From Eledone cirrhosa (taxonomy: Eukaryota), in contig OZ024749.1 of the NCBI GenBank assembly GCA_964016885.1, positions 20,336,001-20,400,000 on the forward strand: 64,000 bases of DNA, written 5' to 3'. Shown here piece by piece: positions 1 through 56,398 of this stretch. Below the pieces are notes generated by a model. That model ran no database searches, had not been told where the DNA came from, and was given only the letters and a program-made list of their open reading frames with translations. Position 1 is the first letter of the stretch. Each line of letters opens with the position of its first letter. Both the position numbers and the translations under genes were made by a program.

Positions 1-3000
1 AGAGGTGTGTTTTAACTGTTCAGTTAAGGTGACAGAATGCTGAGGACCAGAGGTGTGTTTTAACTGTTCAGTTAAGGTGACAGAATGCTGAGGACCAGAG
101 GTGTGTTTTAACTCCTCAGTAAAGGTGACAGACTGCTGAGGACCAGAGGTGTGTTTTAACTGTTCAGTTAAGGTGACAGAATGCTGAGGACCAGAGGTGT
201 GTTTTAACTCCTCAGTGAAGGTGACAGAATGCTGAGGACCAGAGGTGTGTTTTAACTCCTCAGTAAAGGTGACAGACTGCTGAGGACCAGAGGTGTGTTT
301 TAACTGTTCAGTTAAGGTGACAGAATGCTGAGGACCAGAGGTGTGTTTTAACTCCTCAGTGAAGGTGACAGAATGCTGAGGACCAGAGGTGTGTTTTAAC
401 TGCTCAGTTAAGGTGACAGACTACTGAGGACCAGAGGTGTGTTTTAACTCCTCAGTAAATGTGACAGACTACTGAGGAACAGGGGTGTGTTTTAACTGTT
501 CAGTTAAGGTGACAGATTGCTGAGGACCAGAGGTGTGTTTTAACTCCTCAGTTAAGGTGACAGACTGCTGAGGACCAGAGGTGTGTTTTAACTCCTCAGT
601 TAAGGTGACAGATTGCTGAGGAACAGAGGTGTGTTTTAACTCCTCAGTTAAGGTGACAGACTGCTGAGGAACAGGGGTGTGTTTTAACTGTTCAGTTAAG
701 GTGACAGATTGTTGAGGACCAGAGGTGTGTTTTAACTCCTCAGTGAAGGTGTCAGACTACTGAGGACCAGAGGTGTGTTTTAACTGTTCAGTTAAGGTGA
801 CAGAATGCTGAGGACCAGAGGTGTGTTTTAACTGTTCAGTTAAGGTGTCAGACTACTGAGGACCAGAGGTGTATTTTAACTGTTCAGTTAAGGTGTCAGA
901 CTACTGAGGACCAGAGGTGTGTTTTAACTGCTCAGTTAAGGTGACAGATTGCTGAGGACCAGAGGTGTGTTTTAACTCCTCAGTTAAGGTGTCAGACTAC
1001 TGAGGAAAAGGGGTGTGTTTTAACTGTTCAGTTAAGGTGACAGATTGCTGAGGACCAGAGGTGTGTTTTAACTGCTCAGTTAAGGTGTCAGACTACTGAG
1101 GACCAGAGATGTGTTTTAACTGCTCAGTAAAGGTGACAGACTGCTGAGGACCAGAGAAGTGTTTTAACTGCTCAGTAAAGGTGACAGACTGCTGAGGACC
1201 AGAGATGTGTTTTAACTGCTCAGTAAAGGTGACAGACTGCTGAGGACCAGAGGTGTGTTTTAACTCCTCAGTTAAGGTGACAGACTACTGAGGACCAGAG
1301 GTGTGTTTTAACTGCTCAGTAAAGGTGACAGACTGCTGAGGACCAGAGATGTGTTTTAACTGCTCAGTAAAGGTGACAGACTGCTGAGGACCAGAGATGT
1401 GTTTTAACTGCTCAGTAAAGGTGACAGACTGCTGAGGACCAGAGGTGTGTTTTAACTCCTCAGTAAAGGTGACAGACTGCTGAGGACCAGAGATGTGTTT
1501 TAACTGCTCAGTAAAGGTGACAGACTGCTGAGGAACAGAGGTGTGTTTTAACGCCTCAGTTAAGGTGACAGATTGCTGAGGACCAGAGGTGTGTTTTAAC
1601 TCCTCAGTTAAGGTGACAGATTGCTGAGGACCAGAGGTGTGTTTTAACTGCTCAGTAAAGGTGACAGATTGCTGAGGACCAGAGGTGTGTTTTAACTCCT
1701 CAGTTAAGGTGACAGATTGCTGAGGACCAGAGGTGTGTTTTAACTGCTCAGTAAAGGTGACAGACTACTGAGGACCAGAGGTGTGTTTTAACTCCTCAGT
1801 TAAGGTGACAGACTACTGAGGACCAGAGGTGTGTTTTAACTCCTCAGTAAAGGTGACAGACTGCTGAGGACCAGAGGTTTGTTTTAACTCCTCAGTTAAG
1901 GTGACAGACTACTGAGGAACAGAGGTGTGTTTTAACTGCTCAGTTAAGGTCACAGACTACTGAGGAACAGAGGTGTGTTTTAACTGCTCAGTTAAGGTGA
2001 CAGACTACTGAGGAACAGAGGTGTGTTTTAACTGTTCAGTGAAGGTGACAGACTACTGAGGACCAGAGGTGTGTTTTAACTGTTCAGTTAAGGTGACAGA
2101 CTACTGAGGACCAGAGGTGTGTTTTAACTCCTCAGTGAAGGTGACAGACTACTGAGGACCAGAGGTGTGTTTTAACTGCTCAGTAAAGGTGACAGACTAC
2201 TGAGGACCAGAGCTTTGTTTTAACTCCTCAGTTAAGGTGACAGACTACTGAGGACCAGAGGTGTGTTTTAACTCCTCAGTAAAGATGACAGACTGCTGAG
2301 GACCAGAGGTGTGTTTTAACTCCTCAGTAAAGATGACAGACTGCTGAGGACCAGAGGTGTGTTTTAACTCCTCAGTAAAGGTGACAGACTGCTGAGGACC
2401 AGAGGTGTGTTTTAACTCCTCAGTTAAGGTGACAGACTACTGAGGACCAGAGGTGTGTTTTAACTCCTCAGTAAATGTGACAGACTGCTGAGGACCAGAG
2501 GTGTTTTTTAACTCCTCAGTAAAGGTGATAGACTGCTGAGGACCAGAGGTGTGTTTTAACGGCTCAGTAAAAGTGACAGACTGCTGAGGACCAGAGGTGT
2601 GTTTTAACTCCTCAGTAAAGGTGACAGACTGCTGAGGACCAGAGGTGTGTTTTAACTCCTCAGTTAAGGTGACAGACTACTGAGGACCAGAGGTGTGTTT
2701 TAACTCCTCAGTTAAGGTGACAGACTGCTGAGGACCAGAGGTGTGTTTTAACTGCTCATTGAAGGTGACAGACTACTGAGGACCAGAGGTGTGTTTTAAC
2801 TGCTCAGTTAAGGTGACAGACTACAGAGGAACAGAGGTGTGTTTTAACTGCTCAGTTAAGGTGACAGACTACTGAGGAACAGAGGTGTGTTTTAACTGCT
2901 CAGTTAAGGTGACAGACTACTGAGGAACAGAGGTGTGTTTTAACTCCTCAGTAAAGGTGACAGATTGCTGAGGACCAGAGGTGCGTTTTAACTGCTCAGT

Positions 3001-6000
3001 GAAGGTGACAGACTACTGAGGACCAGAGGTGTGTTTTAACTGCTCAGTTAAGGTGACAGACTACTGAGGAAAAGAGGTGTGTTTTAACTCCTCAGTTAAG
3101 GTGACAGACTACTGAGGACCAGAGGTGTGTTTTAACTCCTCAGTTAAGGTGTCAGACTACTGAGGACCAGAGGTGTGTTTTAACTGTTCAGTTAAGGTGA
3201 CAGACTGCTGAGGAACAGAGGTGTGTTTTAACTGTTCAGTTAAGGTGACAGATTGCTGAGGACCAGAGGTGTGTTTTAACTGTTCAGTTAAGGTGACACA
3301 TTGCTGAGGACCAGAGGTGTGTTTTAACTGTTCAGTTAAGGTGACAGATTGCTGAGGACCAGAGGTGTGTTTTAACTCCTCAGTAAAGGTGACAGACAAC
3401 TGAGGACCAGAGGTGTGTTTTAACTGTTCAGTTAAGGTGACAGAATACTGAGGACCAGAGGTGTGTTTTAACTCCTCAGTTAAGGTGACAGACTACTGAG
3501 GACCAGAGGTGTGTTTTAACTCCTCAGTTAAGGTGTCAGACTACCGAGGAACAGAGGTGTGTTTTAACTCCTCAGTAAAGGTGACAGACTACTGAGGACC
3601 AGAGGTGTGTTTTAACTCCTCAGTTAAGGTGACAGACTACTGAGGACCAGAGGTGTGTTTTAACTGCTCAGTTAAGGTGTCAGACTACCGAGGAACAGAG
3701 GTGTGTTTTAACTCCTCAGTTAAGGTGTCAGACTACTGAGGACCAGAGGTGTGTTTTAACTGCTCAGTAAAGGTGACAGACTACCGAGGAACAGAGGTGT
3801 GTTTTAACTGTTCAGTTAAGGTCACAGACTACTGAGGAACAGAGGTGTGTTTTAACTGCTCAGTTAAGGTGTCAGACTACCGAGGAACAGAGGTGTGTTT
3901 TAACTCCTCAGTAAAGGTGACAGACTACTGAGGACCAGAGGTGTGTTTTAACTGCTCAGTTAAGGTGACAGACTACTGAGGAACAGAGGTGTGTTTTAAC
4001 TGCTCAGTTAAGGTGTCAGACTACCGAGGACCAGAGGTGTGTTTTAACTCCTCAGTAAAGGTGACAGACTACTGAGGACCAGAGGTGTGTTTTAACTGCT
4101 CAGTTAAGGTGACAGACTGCTGAGGACCAGAGGTGTGTTTTAACTCCTCAGTAAAGGTGTCAGACTACCGAGGAACAGAGGTGTGTATTAACTCCTCAGT
4201 AAAGGTGACAGACTACTGAGGACCAGAGGTGTGTTTTAACTGCTCAGTTAAGGTGACAGACTGCTGAGGACCAGAGGTGTGTTTTAACTCCTCAGTAAAG
4301 GTGTCAGACTACTGAGGAACAGAGGTGTGTTTTAACTGTTCAGTTAAGGTGACAGACTGCTGAGGGCCAGAGGTGTGTTTTAACTGCTCAGTTAAGGTGA
4401 CAGACTACTGAGGAACAGAGGTGTGTTTTAACTGTTCAGTTAAGGTGACAAACTACTGAGGAACAGAGGTGTGTTTTAACTGCTCAGTTAAGGTGACAGA
4501 CTACTGAGGAACAGAGGTGTGTTTTAACTGCTCAGTTAAGGTCACAGACTACTGAGGAACAGAGGTGTGTTTTAACTGCTCAGTTAAGGTGACAGACTAC
4601 TGAGGAACAGAGGTGTGTTTTAACTGCTCAGTTAAGGTGACAGACTACTGAGGAACAGAGGTGTGTTTTAACTACTCAGTTAAGGTGACAGACTACTGAG
4701 GAACAGAGGTGTGTTTTAACTGTTCAGTGAAGGTGACAGACTACTGAGGACCAGAGGTGTGTTTTAACTGTTCAGTTAAGGTGACAGACTACTTGAGGAC
4801 CAGAGGTGTGTTTTAACTCCTCAGTGAAGGTGACAGACTACTGAGGACCAGAGGTGTGTTTTAACTGCTCAGTAAAGGTGACAGACTACTGAGGAACAGA
4901 GGTGTGTTTTAACTGCTCAGTTAAGGTGACAGACTACTGAGGACCAGAGATGTGTTTTAACTCCTCAGTAAAGGTGACAGACTGCTGAGGACCAGAGGTG
5001 TGTTTTAACTCCTCAGTAAAGGTGACAGACTACTGAGGACCAGAGGTGTGTTTTAACTCCTCAGTAAAGGTGACAGATGCTGAGGACCAGAGGTGTGTTT
5101 TAACTCCTCAGTTAAGGTGACAGACTACTGAGGACCAGAGGTGTGTTTTAACTCCTCAGTAAAGGTGACAGACTGCTGAGGACCAGAGGTGTTTTTTAAC
5201 TCCTCAGTAAAGGTGACAGACTGCTGAGGACCAGAGGTGTGTTTTAACGCCTCAGTAAAGGTGACAGACTGCTGAGGACCAGAGGTGTGTTTTAACTCCT
5301 CAGTAAAGGTGACAGACTGCTGAGGACCAGAGGTGTGTTTTAACTCCTCAGTTAAGGTGACAGTCTACTGAGGACCAGAGGTGTGTTTTAACTCCTCAGT
5401 TAAGGTGACAGACTGCTGAGGACCAGAGGTCTGTTTTAACTCCTCAGTAAAGGTGACAGACTACTGAGGACCAGAGGTGTGTTTTAACTCCTCAGTAAAG
5501 GTGACAGACTACTGAGAACCAGAGGTGTGTTTTAACTCCTCAGTAAAGGTGACAGATTGCTGAGGACCAGAGGTGTGTTTTAACTGCTCATTGAAGGTGA
5601 CAGACTACTGAGGACCAGAGGTGTGTTTTAACTGCTCAGTTAAGGTGACAGACTACTGAGGAACAGAGGTGTGTTTTAACTGCTCAGTTAAGGTGACAGA
5701 CTACTGAGGAACAGAGGTGTGTTTTAACTGCTCAGTTAAGGTGACAGACTACTGAGGAACAGAGGTGTGTTTTAACTCCTCAGTAAAGGTGACAGATTGC
5801 TGAGGACCAGAGGTGTGTTTTAACTGCTCAGTGAAGGTGACAGACTACTGAGGACCAGAGGTGTGTTTTAACTGCTCAGTTAAGGTGACAGACTACTGAG
5901 GAACAGAGGTGTGTTTTAACTGCTCAGTTAAGGTGACAGACTACTGAGGACCAGAGGTGTGTTTTAACTCCTCAGTTAAGGTGTCAGACTACTGAGGACC

Positions 6001-20661: not shown

Positions 20662-20724
<63 letters not shown>

Positions 20725-21210
20725 AAAGAGAAAACACAGGTAAGCATTAAGAGAAGGATTTTATCCAGGTATTTACGACCGTTTCATTGGTAAGTGCAAC
20801 CTTATATTGCTATACTGCAAATAGCAGCCACTCAGTTATAATTGTTGTTCACAGTCCAAATTTTCAAAATAGTAAGTTACTCTTGAAATAATTCTTAATA
20901 TATAGAGAAAAACATTTATTTGGAATTGTATTTACTAGTATAGAGAGAGAGGTATCAGAAGGTGAGGGGACAAACGGAATAGTATAGAGAGAGAGGAAGG
21001 GGGAAGAGGTAGGAAGTAGAGTGACAAACTGAGATGGAGGGAGGGGTAGAGGTGGAAGGATTCTTTGGTCAGTTTTAATAGCAGACTTCATGTCGTGGAA
21101 TGTAGTGAGTTAAAGAGAATTAAATTGATCATAGTGGGAGGGATGGATAGAGAGGGAGAGAGAGAGAGGGGGGAGATATAAAGAGATAAATATATATATA
21201 TATATATATA

Positions 21211-21430
21211 AAAAACATGAGAAGAAAGAAGAATACTGCGTGGTTGCACATGGATTACGTATGATAAAATTAAACCCTCATCAGTGATTTGCCAACCATC
21301 ATTGGTATCATCGCATTAAAAATCATATACCTCAGGTTGGTGCGAGCAATAACTAAAAAAAGCTATTGGGACAAGTAAATCGCGTAAAGCGAGTGAGACA
21401 AGTAAACAACATAGAAGGATAAAAGCAAAA
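21211..21430 (-). mobile_element. Partial copy of ~500-nt non-coding element (family P, permuted-hammerhead carrier)
   Basis: Closely matches 43228-43400 and 55938-56155; follows (TA)n; core CTGATGA kept, GAAA reduced to GA. Confidence 0.8.
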
Positions 21431-21655
21431 AATAAAGATAAAGATAATAATGACAAAAATAAAAGCAAAGAAGGGGGTGAGAAAGAAGAAAAGAAAAGAT
21501 AGCCAAGAAGGGGAGGGAAGGAAGGAAGAAAACGAAGAAATAGAAGAGGAATGAGGGAGAAGAGAGGGATATATGCATTGGTTTTGTGGGTAATTAAAAG
21601 GGTTTAGATACAAGAGGGTATAAAGTCTAAGTATATGTCAGTTGGTAGTAAGAGG

Positions 21656-21970
21656 TTAAGGGTTCGATTTGTAGTGCGAAAACTTCTCTTTGAGTCTATG
21701 GTTACAATAAATTGATCTTTCGATTTTATTGTTGAGTAACTTATTCTTCGAACTCAAGATGTGGAACAGCTCAAGGTCGCATAATCGACAGCTTCTCATA
21801 CCACTCCGATATGGGGGCGCGTTCGATAATTTTTTCCACTTCAGGGTGTATTGATGGTTACTTTCCCTCAGTTGCCAGGTCTTGTTTGCAAGGGTAGTTA
21901 CATAACGATGCTGGGAATGTTTCATTGCGTAACGGTGTGTATACCAACGGGCTTTAAATGTATTCAGTAT
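21656..21970 (-). pseudogene. GIY-YIG endonuclease C-terminal fragment of a Penelope-like element
   Basis: FKARWYTH...TTLANKTWQL...CRLCDLE...LLNNKIERSIYCNH, alignable by eye with 46652-46960 and 32250-32539. Confidence 0.85.
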
Positions 21971-22125
21971 GGTCACTCTACTTCCTACCTCTTCCCCTTT
22001 CCTCTCTCTTTATACTATTCCGTTTGTCCCCTCACCTTCTGATACCTCTCTCTCTATACTAGTAAATACAATTCCAAATAAATGTTTTTCTCTATATATT
22101 AAGAATTATTTCAAGAGTAACTTAC

Positions 22126-22227
22126 TATTTTGAAAATTTGGACTGTGAACAACAATTATAATTGAGTGGCTGCTATTTGCAGTATAGCAATATAAGGTTG
22201 CACTTACCAATGAAACGGTCGTAAATA
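22126..22227 (+). ncRNA. Degenerate type I hammerhead with ~75-nt stem II (mirror copy ~20770-20871, minus)
   Basis: TATT-TTGAAAA (two changes from CTGAAGA)-TTTGG...CCAAT-GAAAC-GGTC-GTA-AATA. Confidence 0.5.
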
Positions 22228-22417
22228 CCTGGATAAAATCCTTCTCTTAATGCTTACCTGTGTTTTCTCTTTTATACTCCAAGATTGAACGGAATTCTTA
22301 CAAACTTATGGAGTTACCCCTAACCGTACGGTGAAACCATCCATGAAACTGGCTTTCTTAACCAAGAACTGGATCACAATAAGCAATTTTCTGCTTCTCT
22401 AACTATATATATATATA

Positions 22418-40861: not shown

Positions 40862-40924
<63 letters not shown>

Positions 40925-41043
40925 CATACACATACAGGTACACATACATATATGCACGTATCAGTTTAGCTGACGCTTATTATAACGCCGCTTTGTTCGT
41001 TTGTAAACTGATACGTGCATATATGTATGTGTACCTGTATGTG

Positions 41044-41131
<88 letters not shown>

Positions 41132-41330: not shown

Positions 41331-41369
41331 ATTAGAAATGTAAGCTATCGCCGTATTTTGACTAAAGAA

Positions 41370-41890
41370 TTTACGCGATTTACTGGTCCCAATAACTTTT
41401 TTTAGTTATTGCTCGCACCAACCCGAGGTATATGATTTTTAATGCGATTAAAATACCAATGATGGTTGGAAAATCACTGACGAAGGACTATTTTTATCAT
41501 ATATAACCCCGCAATATTCTTCTCTCTTCTCATGTTTTTTATATATATTTACCTCGGCTGCTTCCCCGCTCTCTCTGTTTCTCTCACCTTCTTTCGACCC
41601 CTCTGTCAGTTACACTTTCTCTCGACTGACCTCTTCCTCGCACTTCCACTCACTCACTCTCTGTTTCTCCCCTTCTCACTTCCTCCCGTTTGGCTTGTAG
41701 TGGGTCTCTTCTTGCTTACATCTCACTCACGTCGGACGGTCTGTACCTCTTTCGCTCATGAAATCCACCCAGCGTATGCTGACCGGACAACCATGTTGCT
41801 TGTTTATTTTCCTATCTTTGGTTTGCTTTTATCCTTCTATGTTGTTTACTTGTCCCCCTCGCTTTACGCGATTTACTGGTCCCAATAACT
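41370..41890 (+). mobile_element. Family P element: 493-bp monomer plus 28-bp terminal redundancy
   Basis: TTTACGCGATTTACTGGTCCCAATAACT at 41370 and 41863; permuted HHR motif 41418-41484 with damaged GAAA. Confidence 0.85.
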
Positions 41891-41973
41891 AAGCCAGCAG
41901 TATCAGAACGGCGAGAATCTATATAGACACATAAACACACACACAGACACACACACACACACACACACACACC

Positions 41974-42008
<35 letters not shown>

Positions 42009-42399
42009 TCATCAATATAAACACACACACGCATATATATATGTGTATATATGACCTCCCCCCTATATATAGAGGTCTACCGTTCCTCAGCCCCTAATAC
42101 CTCATACCACACCTCTTACATCCCCTCCCCTACCAACGACACACCTCCGCCCACAACACCTCACCTCTTTCTGCCCACCTCCCTTTTACCCACTTCCATT
42201 ACCACTTACCACAACAACCACACCGCCCTCACCACCCAGTACCTTCACACCTTTACACCTCCACCCTACCCCATGTCGCTACCTATCTCCTACCATCCAT
42301 CACGCCCTAGTCGGAGGTGAGGTGGGGTGAGGGTGGCAGCTGTGGCGAATTGTTATGTCTACTCCCCCCACTACCACTCAGCAGCTGTGGTAACTAGCT

Positions 42400-42991
42400 A
42401 CCCCTACCATCACGCCACCACCACCACCGCCACACCGCCAAAACCATCACCACAACACCTCACCACTAACATCACCATCACGCAACCACCACCACTACAC
42501 CGCCAACACCATCACCACAACACCACCGCCATCGCCACCGATGCCACAGCCGCCAACACCATCACCACAACACCACACCACCACCACCATCGCCACCGTT
42601 ACCACCACCACCACCACCACGCCTCCAACACCATCACCACAACACCACAGCACCACCACCACCATCGCCACCGTTAGCACCACCACCACCACCACGCCGC
42701 CAACACCATCACCACAACACCACACCTCCACCACAACACCATCATCATCACGCCACCACCGCCGCTACCGTTACCACCACACCGCCAAAACCATACAACA
42801 CCGCCACCACATCCCCACCACCTTCCACCATACCACCAGCACCAATACACCACCACTATCACCACAACACCGCAGCACCACCACCACCATCATCACTACC
42901 ACCAAGAACAACATCCAGCAGCAGCAACACGCCACCGCCACCACCACCACCACCAACAACAACAACACACAACCACCAACAACAACAACAC

Positions 42992-43022
<31 letters not shown>

Positions 43023-43100
43023 CACCACCACCAACAACAACAACAACAACAACACACCACTACCACCAACAACAACACACCACCACCACCACCACTACAA
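42400..43100. repeat. (CAC)n/(CAA)n trinucleotide-derived low-complexity tract
   Basis: Direct reading; internal ~65-bp duplications of CCAACACCATCACCACAACACC. Confidence 0.9.
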
Positions 43101-43185
43101 TGACACAGGACCAGTTGTTGTTCTATAGAAATTCGTTGTTCCAGTAATATTTGGGTTGTGATGTTTCACCCTGTGTGTGTGTGTG

Positions 43186-43227
<42 letters not shown>

Positions 43228-43230
<3 letters not shown>

Positions 43231-43782
43231 GAGAAGAAAGAATACTGCGTAGTTGCACATGGGTTACATATGATAAAAATAGTCCTTCGTCAGTGATTTT
43301 CCAACCTTCATTGGTATTTCGTCGCTTTAAAAATCATATACCTCCGGTTGGTGCGAGCAATAGCTAAATAAAGCTATTGGGACAAGTAAAGCGAGCGAAA
43401 CAGTAAACAAACAAGGAAGGATAGCAACGCAAAGATAGGAAAAAACAAGCGCATGGGGATCCGGTCAGCTTAAGCTGTGTGGATTTCATGAGCGGGGGAA
43501 ATACAGACCGTCCGACGTGAGTGAGATGTGAGCAAGAAGATAACCCACTACAGGCCAAACGGGAGGAAGTGAGAAGGGGAGAAGCAGAGAGTGAGTGAGT
43601 GGAAGTGCGAGGAAGAGGCCAGTCGAGAGAAAGTGTAACTGACAGAGGGGGCGAAAGAAGGTGAGAGAAACAGAGAGCGAGGAAGCAGTAAGAGAGAAAC
43701 AGACAAACGCAGCTGAGGAAAATATATATAAAAAACATGAGAAGGAAGAATACTACGTGGTTACACATGGGTTACATATGAT
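43228..43782 (-). mobile_element. Family P element: 508-bp monomer plus ~47-bp terminal redundancy
   Basis: CATGAGAAG.AAGAATACT.CGT...GGGTTACATATGAT at 43228 and 43736. Confidence 0.85.
43286..43351 (-). ncRNA. Candidate permuted (pseudoknotted) hammerhead with kink-turn
   Basis: CCAACC GGA GGTA-TA-TGATTTT taaagcgac GAAA-TACC AAT GAA GGTTGG AAAATCA-CTGACGA. Confidence 0.6.
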
Positions 43783-45999: not shown

Positions 46000-47303
46000 G
46001 AATGAATAATAACAGGTAGACATCATAAAAAGGTAATTTATTCCGTGTGCTTACAAGTGTTTCCACGGTGGTACTGCAGCCTAGTTCCGCTACGTGCAAA
46101 TTCACAAGTACTTGCAGAACTCGAATATCCAATGCTGTGACCACTGTTTCCTCAGAGCAGAATGGTAAATGTACAATGTAAATACCCTTAAGTGGGGTTG
46201 TTGCGGAAGATAGAGTAGAACAGGAAGAGAGAAAAGTAGGGAAGAGGGAGAGAGAAAGAAAGATATGCAGGGGTTGGAGAAGTAGGAGAGAGTGGCTTGT
46301 AGATATCTTAATCAAAATGTTATGGTAGGGGTTTTATTATACTGGTTACTTTTGGAGAGATGCGTTGATAGTTAAGGTCGGAATTATTTATTGCCCCAGA
46401 GGGCAGGTTCATAGATGTTGAGAGGGAGGTAGGTCAAAGGTGAGAGAGAGAGAGTGTAATGGATGTAGAGAGAGATAGGTAGAGAGGGGACAGATAAAGT
46501 ATGTGTGGTGAGTGAACTATGGGTTTGTAGTAGTAATCTAGGAATTGCACTGAGTTACCATGTATAGTGATAAGCAGTGTATTGTCTTGTAGTGTGGGGG
46601 GAAGAGAAGGTTGTTAGCTAGAAAGTGGTGTTATAGTTACGGGTTCGAATGTTAAGTTATTTTATAGTGAGAGAATTTAGCTTTTAGTTTGTGGTTGCAG
46701 TATAATGATCGTTCAATTCTATCGTTAAGTAGTTTGTTTTGGGATTTTAATATGTAAAATAGCTCAAGGTTACATAACCTGCAGTACTTCAATCCACTCC
46801 GATATGCACTTGCGCTGGAAAGTATATCCCATTTTAAGGTGAACTGTTGGTTGTGTTCACGGAGTTGCCAGGTCTTGTTGGCGAGCGTGGTCACAAAACG
46901 GTGATTCGGATGTTTGATTGAGAATCGATGACGGTACCAGCGAGATTTAAACGATGTGGTGGTAGATCCGATATAATACCATTTCTGGTCGTTCGATTCA
47001 ACCGTGCATTGGTAAACAATGTTGGACTTTAGGCATTCATTCTGCATACTATCATACTCCACGGCACCAAACCTTGAAGCATACATAAAAAAACTTAACT
47101 TAAGGCAATTAAACAACACTACAAAACAAAACATTTTAGTAACAGATGGGCAGAACGCAATATCTGCCTCCCAACCACTAAATGGGAGACGGGTATTACA
47201 CAACCCACCTGTACCGCTATCACAACCTATCCATGGTATACCCGCTACCCACAACAAAGAATGTAACTGCCATCTACCTGAAAGATGTCCATTGCAGAAT
47301 GAA
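46000..47303 (-). mobile_element. 5'-truncated GIY-YIG family B Penelope-like element with inverted 5' segment
   Basis: Minus 46652-47046 gives QNECLKSNIVYQC...YIGST..FKSRW..H...CRLC; plus 47046-47303 gives the upstream LSYSTAPNL...CNCHLPERCPLQNE. Confidence 0.88.
46048..46159 (-). ncRNA. Type I hammerhead with ~85-nt stem II in PLE 3' UTR
   Basis: TGCT-CTGAGGA-[ACAGTGGT...ACCACCGT]-GAAAC-ACTT-GTA-AGCA. Confidence 0.78.
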
Positions 47304-52857: not shown

Positions 52858-53233
<376 letters not shown>

Positions 53234-55937: not shown

Positions 55938-55945
<8 letters not shown>

Positions 55946-56393
55946 GTGAAGAAAGAAGGATACTGCGTGGTTGCCCATGGGTTACATATGATAAAAATAG
56001 TCCTTCGTCAGTGATTTGCCAACCATCATTGGTATTTCATCGCATTAAAAATCATATACCTCAGGTTGGTGCGAGCAATAGCTAAATAAAGCTATTGGGA
56101 CAAGTAAATCGCGTAAAGCGAGGGGGACAAGTAAACAACATAGAAGGATAAAAGCAAACCAAAGATAGGAAAAAAACAAGCAACATGGTTGTCCGGTCAG
56201 CATAGGCTGGGTGGATTTCATGAGCGAAAGAGGTACAGACCGTCCGACGCGAGTGAGATGTAAGCAAGAAGAGAACCACTGTAAGCCAAACGGGAGGAAG
56301 TGAGAAGGGGAGTAACAGAGAGTGAGTGAGTGCAAGTGCGAGGAAGCGGTCAAACAACATAGAAAGATAAAAGCAAACCAAAGATAGGAAAAA

Positions 56394-56398
<5 letters not shown>
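55938..56398 (-). mobile_element. Family P element, truncated, with internal 46-bp re-duplication
   Basis: Matches 43228-43615; 56133-56178 repeats at 56352-56398. Confidence 0.85.
56004..56069 (-). ncRNA. Candidate permuted (pseudoknotted) hammerhead with kink-turn, best-preserved copy
   Basis: CCAACC TGA GGTA-TA-TGATTT ttaatgcgaT GAAA-TACC AAT GAT GGTTGG c AAATCA-CTGACGA-A. Confidence 0.62.

Follow-up and report, generated by a model that had tools for sequence, protein, structure and literature searches.

Non-LTR retrozymes of metazoans carry, by definition, a type I hammerhead; the available parts of the literature give their length as 51-972 bp and propose that they depend on Penelope-like elements (PLEs) (PMC7229834; 10.64898/2026.07.22.740005), and retrozymes are already treated in print as PLE derivatives (available part of Li, Clavereau and Pollet 2026, 10.64898/2026.07.22.740005). 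Hammerheads of type SGC (HRIMA-1 and variants; Eckert et al. 2023) are described, in the accessible part of that work, only from assembled metatranscriptomes (PMC10085705), and non-circular hammerhead permutations are cited in passing only in the portion available of another paper (PMC13725137). For Naiads, the available part of their description reports no canonical hammerhead, only core or half-core motifs (PMC8557442). Our search of the literature, outside which lay most subscription papers, all figures and bioRxiv supplements, yielded no description of a hammerhead with non-circular permutation from an animal genome, a retrozyme or a Naiad.

The window, which is the whole analysed stretch of 64,000 nt from Eledone cirrhosa, holds copies of a repeat, family P, that resembles each of these systems in part. 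We propose, with a probability of roughly 0.65, that family P encodes no protein, has a unit of about 526 nt and resides in TA microsatellites, that it bears a covarying SGC hammerhead predicted to self-cleave, and that it is copied in trans by a PLE. Like non-LTR retrozymes, family P is non-coding, ranges from monomers to tandem multimers with one hammerhead per unit and has thousands of dispersed copies, and its 526-nt unit falls inside the retrozyme size range; unlike them, it has a predicted hammerhead that is non-circularly permuted and missed by type I descriptors and Rfam, and it is strictly (TA)n-targeted, with a fixed end that would reflect internal priming. Expression and circles have been shown for non-LTR retrozymes, whereas family P is known here from genomic DNA alone. 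It thus appears to work like a non-LTR retrozyme, with its hammerhead blocks predicted in S-G-C order where that class has type I.

With the type SGC hammerheads, family P shares the S-G-C order, a 3-nt stem I-stem II linker, a far-side helix and all core bases. It differs from them in lying in animal genomic DNA, in that its cleavage is a prediction only, in a stem II 5' strand that would be broken after 10.1 by two extra helices, so that the molecule opens there, and in a predicted kink-turn that joins stem III to an extra helix where SGC molecules have their ends. By its predicted fold, then, family P is SGC-like with a stem II that is not continuous. The traits shared with Naiads, as given in the available part of Craig et al. 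(2021, PMC8557442), are (TA)n targeting, 5' truncation, partial tandems and inverted 5' copies; to these can be added the scrambled fold of P, which inspection by eye places at the 3' ends of several Naiad consensi, two octopus Naiads having the hairpin loop of P as well. Unlike Naiads, family P is without an ORF, and the likeness in fold was judged by eye, not from a sequence alignment. Family P would also be, like the MRC1-type Chlamys elements, a non-autonomous PLE derivative with multicopy head-to-tail insertions; the Chlamys elements are green algal and have no ribozyme reported in the available part of the source (PMC8557442), whereas family P is of animal DNA and has a predicted ribozyme fold. 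If this reading holds, the known range of non-circular hammerheads would extend from assembled environmental RNAs to the genomes of animals, where they would reach very high copy numbers, and a split-core, kink-turn-closed wiring that escapes standard descriptors and Rfam would make ribozyme and retrozyme censuses undercounts.

Family P copies in the window

Four copies of family P lie in the window (Table 1), two of them with a broken core (c1 and the copy at 21216-21429). Copies c1 and c2 are in opposite orientation and share 82-84% identity. The terminal redundancy that the initial annotation had noted in both was reproduced: c1 has a period of 493 with all 28 of its 28 redundant bases identical, and c2 a period of 508 with a 47-bp overlap that is 91% identical. 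A full monomer is about 526 nt, and both copies carry deletions. The family is also non-coding as had been stated, the longest ATG frame on the pyrimidine-rich strand being 140 aa in one copy and the median 51 aa over 76 copies. The odd start of c1, previously taken as a permutation, is due instead to short microhomologies through which both its ends are joined to fragments of two other repeats; we read these chimeric joins as template switching or later deletion. No empty site was found for c1, and the exact 21-mer of its right flank is unique in the genome.

Table 1. Positions of family P copies, parts of their predicted hammerheads and adjoining features, numbered from the first letter of the window.
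Feature	Position	Strand	Remarks
Family P copy c1	41370..41890	+	1.05 monomers; RNA-sense (pyrimidine-rich) strand is +; chimeric ends; 3' end without (TA)n
Scrambled (SGC-order) hammerhead fold in c1	41386..41488	+	Predicted; parts in order: helix a strand (41386), hairpin b, stem II splint (41413), helix d, stem III 3' strand (41427-41431), predicted cut after 41432, stem I
G block of c1 hammerhead	41449	+	Mutated, core GAAA gone; predicted dead
CUGACGA of c1 hammerhead	41477..41483	+	
Internal U-run/(UA)n patch in c1	41535..41550	+	Fixed 3' end of most genomic insertions; putative priming site
Unrelated TA-associated repeat fragment	41336..41369		Fused to c1 5' end; 97-100% matches in loci L027, L332 and L360
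Second unrelated repeat fragment	41891..41921		Fused to c1 3' end with 4-nt microhomology; 87% match in locus L127
Family P copy c2	43228..43782	-	One monomer and some 47 nt more; typical of the family; fixed 3' end at 43228, continuing into (TA)n
Scrambled hammerhead in c2	43281..43383	-	Predicted; every core base kept; C-A mismatch at 10.1/11.1 position
Predicted cut in c2 hammerhead	43337/43336	-	Between these two positions
5'-truncated family P copy	21216..21429	-	Inside internal (AT)n tract of Penelope-like element; G block damaged (GAAA lost)
Family P copy	55943..56397	-	410 nt plus repeated 47-nt piece; (TA)n on both sides; core intact
Coding Penelope-like element remnant	20721..22276	-	C-terminal GIY-YIG; inverted 5' copy; (TA)n 3' end

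The coding Penelope-like element is the target of one family P insertion and a candidate helper family, separate from family P. A second, diverged Penelope-like GIY-YIG remnant lies on the minus strand at 46600-46990 (69% to 21668-21958). Elsewhere in the window, a satellite fills positions 1-20617, where at least 426 copies of a 48-bp unit, 90-96% similar to one another, extend over 20 kb and leave no frame open throughout, and long palindromes built on (TA)n tracts lie at 40880-41130 and 52858-53233.

Ends, target sites and template of family P

A monomer query against the 3.0-Gb genome gave 4,574 first-look candidates, and a family-specific pattern of 33 places matched exactly 1,870 times, against 0 for its reversed control. 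The first 100 listed of these 1,870 matches led to 90 mapped insertions, of which 88 were kept and 2 dropped at a locus edge. In 81 of the 88 the 3' end falls at one main patch, in 5 at an AT-rich patch 40 nt upstream and in 2 elsewhere; the main patch is an internal U-rich/(UA)n stretch that continues into a (TA)n tract, and an internal 121-nt query gave the same end in 28 of 30 loci. The initial annotation had described the family as inserted as circular permutations and had suggested that the ends be mapped onto the monomer. That mapping places 5' ends anywhere, as permutation would have it, but the 3' end is fixed in the 81, so permuted insertion is not a property of the family.

More than one monomer is present in 34 of the 88 insertions and more than two in 4, and an inverted piece adjoins 8 pieces. 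In 83 insertions the fixed 3' end has a (TA)3 motif no more than 25 nt away, and in 67 the variable end has TATA no more than 10 nt away; target duplications are unreadable inside (AT)n/(TA)n tracts. Among 30 copies of the Penelope-like element of the window, P sequence is present in the internal (AT)n tract in 3 (filled) and absent in 27 (empty); this tract has also been hit repeatedly by other insertions. A fixed 3' end, 5' truncation, tandems and inversions, all referred to the pyrimidine-rich strand, make up the anatomy described for PLEs, and together with the microsatellite target they are what is expected of a PLE-mobilised non-autonomous element. The retrozyme-like and multimeric character proposed earlier for family P is upheld, together with a Penelope-type insertion anatomy. 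It is highly probable that family P is retrotransposed by a PLE-type enzyme, and likely that a Penelope-like reverse transcriptase and endonuclease do so in trans. A sister family, Q, found as a chance neighbour, has a 622-nt unit 68% identical to P; it has a P-like end pattern in 30 of 30 loci, with inversions commoner than in P.

We propose the following route. Read-through transcripts of tandem copies would be cut by the ribozyme once per unit, after GGUAU-A/C, and the resulting monomer may, at about even odds, be ligated into a circle. A GIY-YIG endonuclease would nick (TA)n, and the nicked strand would anneal to the U-run/(UA)n patch some 110 nt past the cut, which would produce the observed fixed 3' end. 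Reverse transcription would then proceed for a variable length across the cut site, often for more than one monomer, and would finish by joining the target at a TA microhomology or with an inverted piece, in line with the end pattern seen. About 110 nt separate the predicted cut from the fixed 3' end downstream of it, and the patch at that end is complementary to the target; priming is therefore likely to be internal rather than at a cleaved RNA end. A fixed internal priming site, combined with empty and filled sites, would make the poorly understood priming of PLEs directly testable on a 526-nt substrate.

The form of the template is less clear. Of 80 multi-piece insertions, a sample in which long copies are over-represented, 47 span two predicted cut sites that are both intact, and just 1 has its end precisely at the site; neither these 80 nor the 88 insertions show an accumulation of 5' ends there. 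With an active ribozyme, a ligated circle is the simplest account of insertions that cross intact cut sites; with a slow one, linear multimers would serve. Within 55 multimers the units have a median divergence of 3.3%, and rare alleles are common to multimer units in 0.20% of columns, vs 0.10% for nearest neighbours, a comparison that gives no clear rolling-circle signature and cannot separate a circle from a linear multimer. We put the chance that an RNA circle is the template slightly below one half. With element and helper unchanged, the template could instead be a read-through transcript from tandem source loci that stays linear and is cleaved only in part, with no circle, an explanation that we regard as possible but distinctly less probable than our main reading. 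PLEs ordinarily combine a fixed 3' end with 5' truncation and partial tandems, the multimer units lack a circle signature, the arrangement resembles the multicopy head-to-tail non-autonomous Chlamys element MRC1, and published SGC ribozymes are, in the available part of the report, rather slow (PMC10085705). On this explanation, however, most templates must escape cleavage, given the 47 insertions with two intact cut sites and the lack of a 5'-end pile-up, and circles are made by other metazoan retrozymes, according to the portion available of their description (PMC7229834). Family P is present in contigs of two runs of unrecorded kind, which is not evidence of expression. A 16-piece family P array at locus L288 (G000:C15:29892000-29901999) has a four-unit higher-order period with equivalent units 0.2-0.4% apart; it arose later by higher-order amplification, and here a retroelement is becoming a satellite.

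Predicted ribozyme fold

Comparison of P with Q on the pyrimidine-rich strand gives as kept bases the hammerhead site strand, then GAAA, then CUGANGA. A loose pattern of two core blocks has 16,421 matches in the genome against 25 in controls, and another core pattern 14,144 against 0, the matches being spread over many subfamilies. From 5' to 3', the fold consists of a helix a strand, hairpin b, the stem II splint, a helix d strand and UGA; the stem III 3' strand, H17, the stem I 5' strand, a UAA linker and the stem II 3' strand; GAAA, the stem III 5' strand, a 3-nt bulge with GA and the second helix d strand; and the stem I 3' strand, CUGANGA, one base and the closing helix a strand, positions being given in hammerhead numbering. 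Stem II has a single direct pair, the remainder being formed via the upstream splint strand (helices a, b and c) in a four-way junction, and stems I and II are linked by 3 nt plus one unpaired base, with helix d connecting them on their far sides. The permuted hammerhead invoked by the initial annotation is accordingly there, with covariation, but in a non-circular order (type SGC) that is none of types I-III.

The covariation was scored on 22 subfamily rows, which we chose for haplotype classes, which are related and mostly come from core-requiring searches, and from which the structure itself was derived; on these, 94.8% of 748 cells pair and 17 of 34 pairs show two-sided changes, and this is to be taken as support for the fold and not as a probability. 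At least one pair in every helix is changed on both sides: 5 of 7 in stem I (94% of cells paired), 1 of 5 in stem III (99% of cells paired) and 4 of 6 in helix d. None of 500 shuffles reaches the observed level, and slid registers pair at 26-45%. Among 189 cores that passed a fixed-spacing filter, H17 is A in 128, C in 59, U in 2 and G in 0, and the 10.1/11.1 position is pairable in 182, with the states A-U, G-U, G-C and U-A. In a kink-turn, two helices flank a 3-nt bulge and the tandem G-A/A-G pairs that come after it; the predicted loop between stem III and helix d conforms to this consensus, with both GA dinucleotides kept in at least 168 of the 189 cores and a bulge that varies. The fold is very probably real, and there is a good chance, somewhat smaller, that the ribozyme cleaves.

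A fold that is real but no longer catalytic, kept as a structure recognised by the Penelope-type protein, seems unlikely. Covariation speaks for structure, not for chemistry, most of the searches required the core, stem II is split and no such core is tested in the published work consulted; moreover, the available part of one study found Xenopus retrozyme dimers uncleaved in eight of nine tested (10.64898/2026.07.22.740005). Against this, no core was required in finding families P and Q, and both retain every core base, with variation confined to N7, H17 takes permitted states only, and the P-type core recurs, by eye, in Naiads of corals, nematodes, an arthropod and cephalopods. An SGC hammerhead that would cleave is our preferred reading of the fold.

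Rfam gave no ribozyme match at E<=1 in the window and none at E<=10 in a family P dimer; no canonical type I-III hammerhead or other Rfam ribozyme was therefore matched in the family. A CUGACAGA...GAAA look-alike on the purine strand was dropped, being without stems, and a weak match to the yeast snoRNA snR66 (E 0.21) that overlaps the kink-turn strand was taken as chance. Folded as a circle, the whole monomer is mildly stable and not rod-like (z -2.3 and -1.7 against 40 shuffles, in a program that cannot fold pseudoknots). Another non-coding tandem family with a (TA)n 3' end, seen at loci L292 (minus strand, about 2950-3150), L324, L325, L327 and L330, has the same fold as P, although beyond the ribozyme the two sequences are little alike.

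Relation to Naiads and other Penelope-like elements

That the copies could be pieces of a pseudo-LTR belonging to a longer coding element, a possibility named in the initial annotation, is very improbable and largely refuted for the sampled loci. The copy at 21216-21429 does sit in the 3' UTR of a Penelope-like ORF, and Naiad 3' ends bear a P-type fold; the P segment, however, is missing from 27 of 30 copies of that Penelope-like element, which rules it out as the element's shared pseudo-LTR, the 5' ends at mapped loci wrap into the next monomer and never into coding DNA, and 13 diverged motif loci have no coding neighbour. Least probable of all is a non-autonomous DNA rolling-circle element (Helitron/Helentron-like) with one fixed origin and read-through multimers, since, although such elements too show one fixed end and tandem multimers, the inverted 5' pieces, the microhomology joins, the chimeras with other repeats and a fold of RNA type with G-U-tolerant pairs on one strand all point to reverse transcription.

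The PLE-copied repeat that we prefer likely descends from a Naiad pseudo-LTR, its predicted architecture being that recognised by eye at published Naiad 3' ends. In the published Naiad consensus file, at places 26-44 of the 62 CTGATGA matches and with record names inferred from the next header, SGC order was recognised by eye in eight of 19 and CSG order in two of 19. The eight SGC-order records comprise three coral, two octopus, one squid and two others, most with a splint strand and a four-way junction; the two CSG-order records are both nematode and have a plain stem II. If this is right, it would explain why Naiads seemed to be without hammerheads. Family P is not itself a Naiad, being non-coding, whereas a Naiad has an ORF with an N-terminal GIY-YIG, a CxC linker and a C-terminal RT. 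The available part of Craig et al. describes cephalopod Naiads as preferring (TA)n, octopus Naiads as (TA)n-targeting, one of them listed as half-core, and cephalopod Naiads as long inactive (PMC8557442); family P copies, by contrast, are only about 3% apart. A wider reading, which we hold tentatively and consider improbable when all its parts are taken jointly, would make P part of an animal retroelement superfamily of more than 16,000 copies that spreads as a small RNA circle from a newly wired hammerhead and is reverse transcribed via internal priming at the (UA)n patch; the kink-turn would bind protein, the ribozyme would be the one Naiads were thought to lack, and the parasite would have outlived its Naiad parent and now use another TA-targeting Penelope-type enzyme.

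A coding Naiad was sought in the genome with two motif patterns, which gave 0 matches and 1 (non-coding) match, and with a third, which gave 48 matches vs 5 in controls and no RT frame within 1.5 kb of any of the 30 examined; none of these searches revealed one, and many of the 48 matches belong to old, non-coding repeats in SGC order. Old G+T-rich repeat families at loci L336-L365, about 70% alike, have SGC-order core motifs and are possibly decayed Naiad 3' ends. Among 50 GIY-YIG loci, drawn from 150 scored of 10,595 candidates, the endonuclease is C-terminal in all 50, and none has P homology at its ends. Several of these C-terminal GIY-YIG families likewise end in (TA)n, and one older family has in common with P only a short pyrimidine-TTTTCA-(TA)n end. 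No homology was found between P and the Penelope-like element of the window, whose family, at a median pairwise identity of 96% over 29 copies, is about as young as P (units 3.3% apart); near its 3' end this element has a GAAAC motif and no CUGANGA. A further PLE family with a C-terminal endonuclease, at loci L366, L377 and L390, has a hammerhead core with UUGAUAA in place of CUGAUGA, and the dozen bases at its 3' terminus are similar to those that end one P subfamily.
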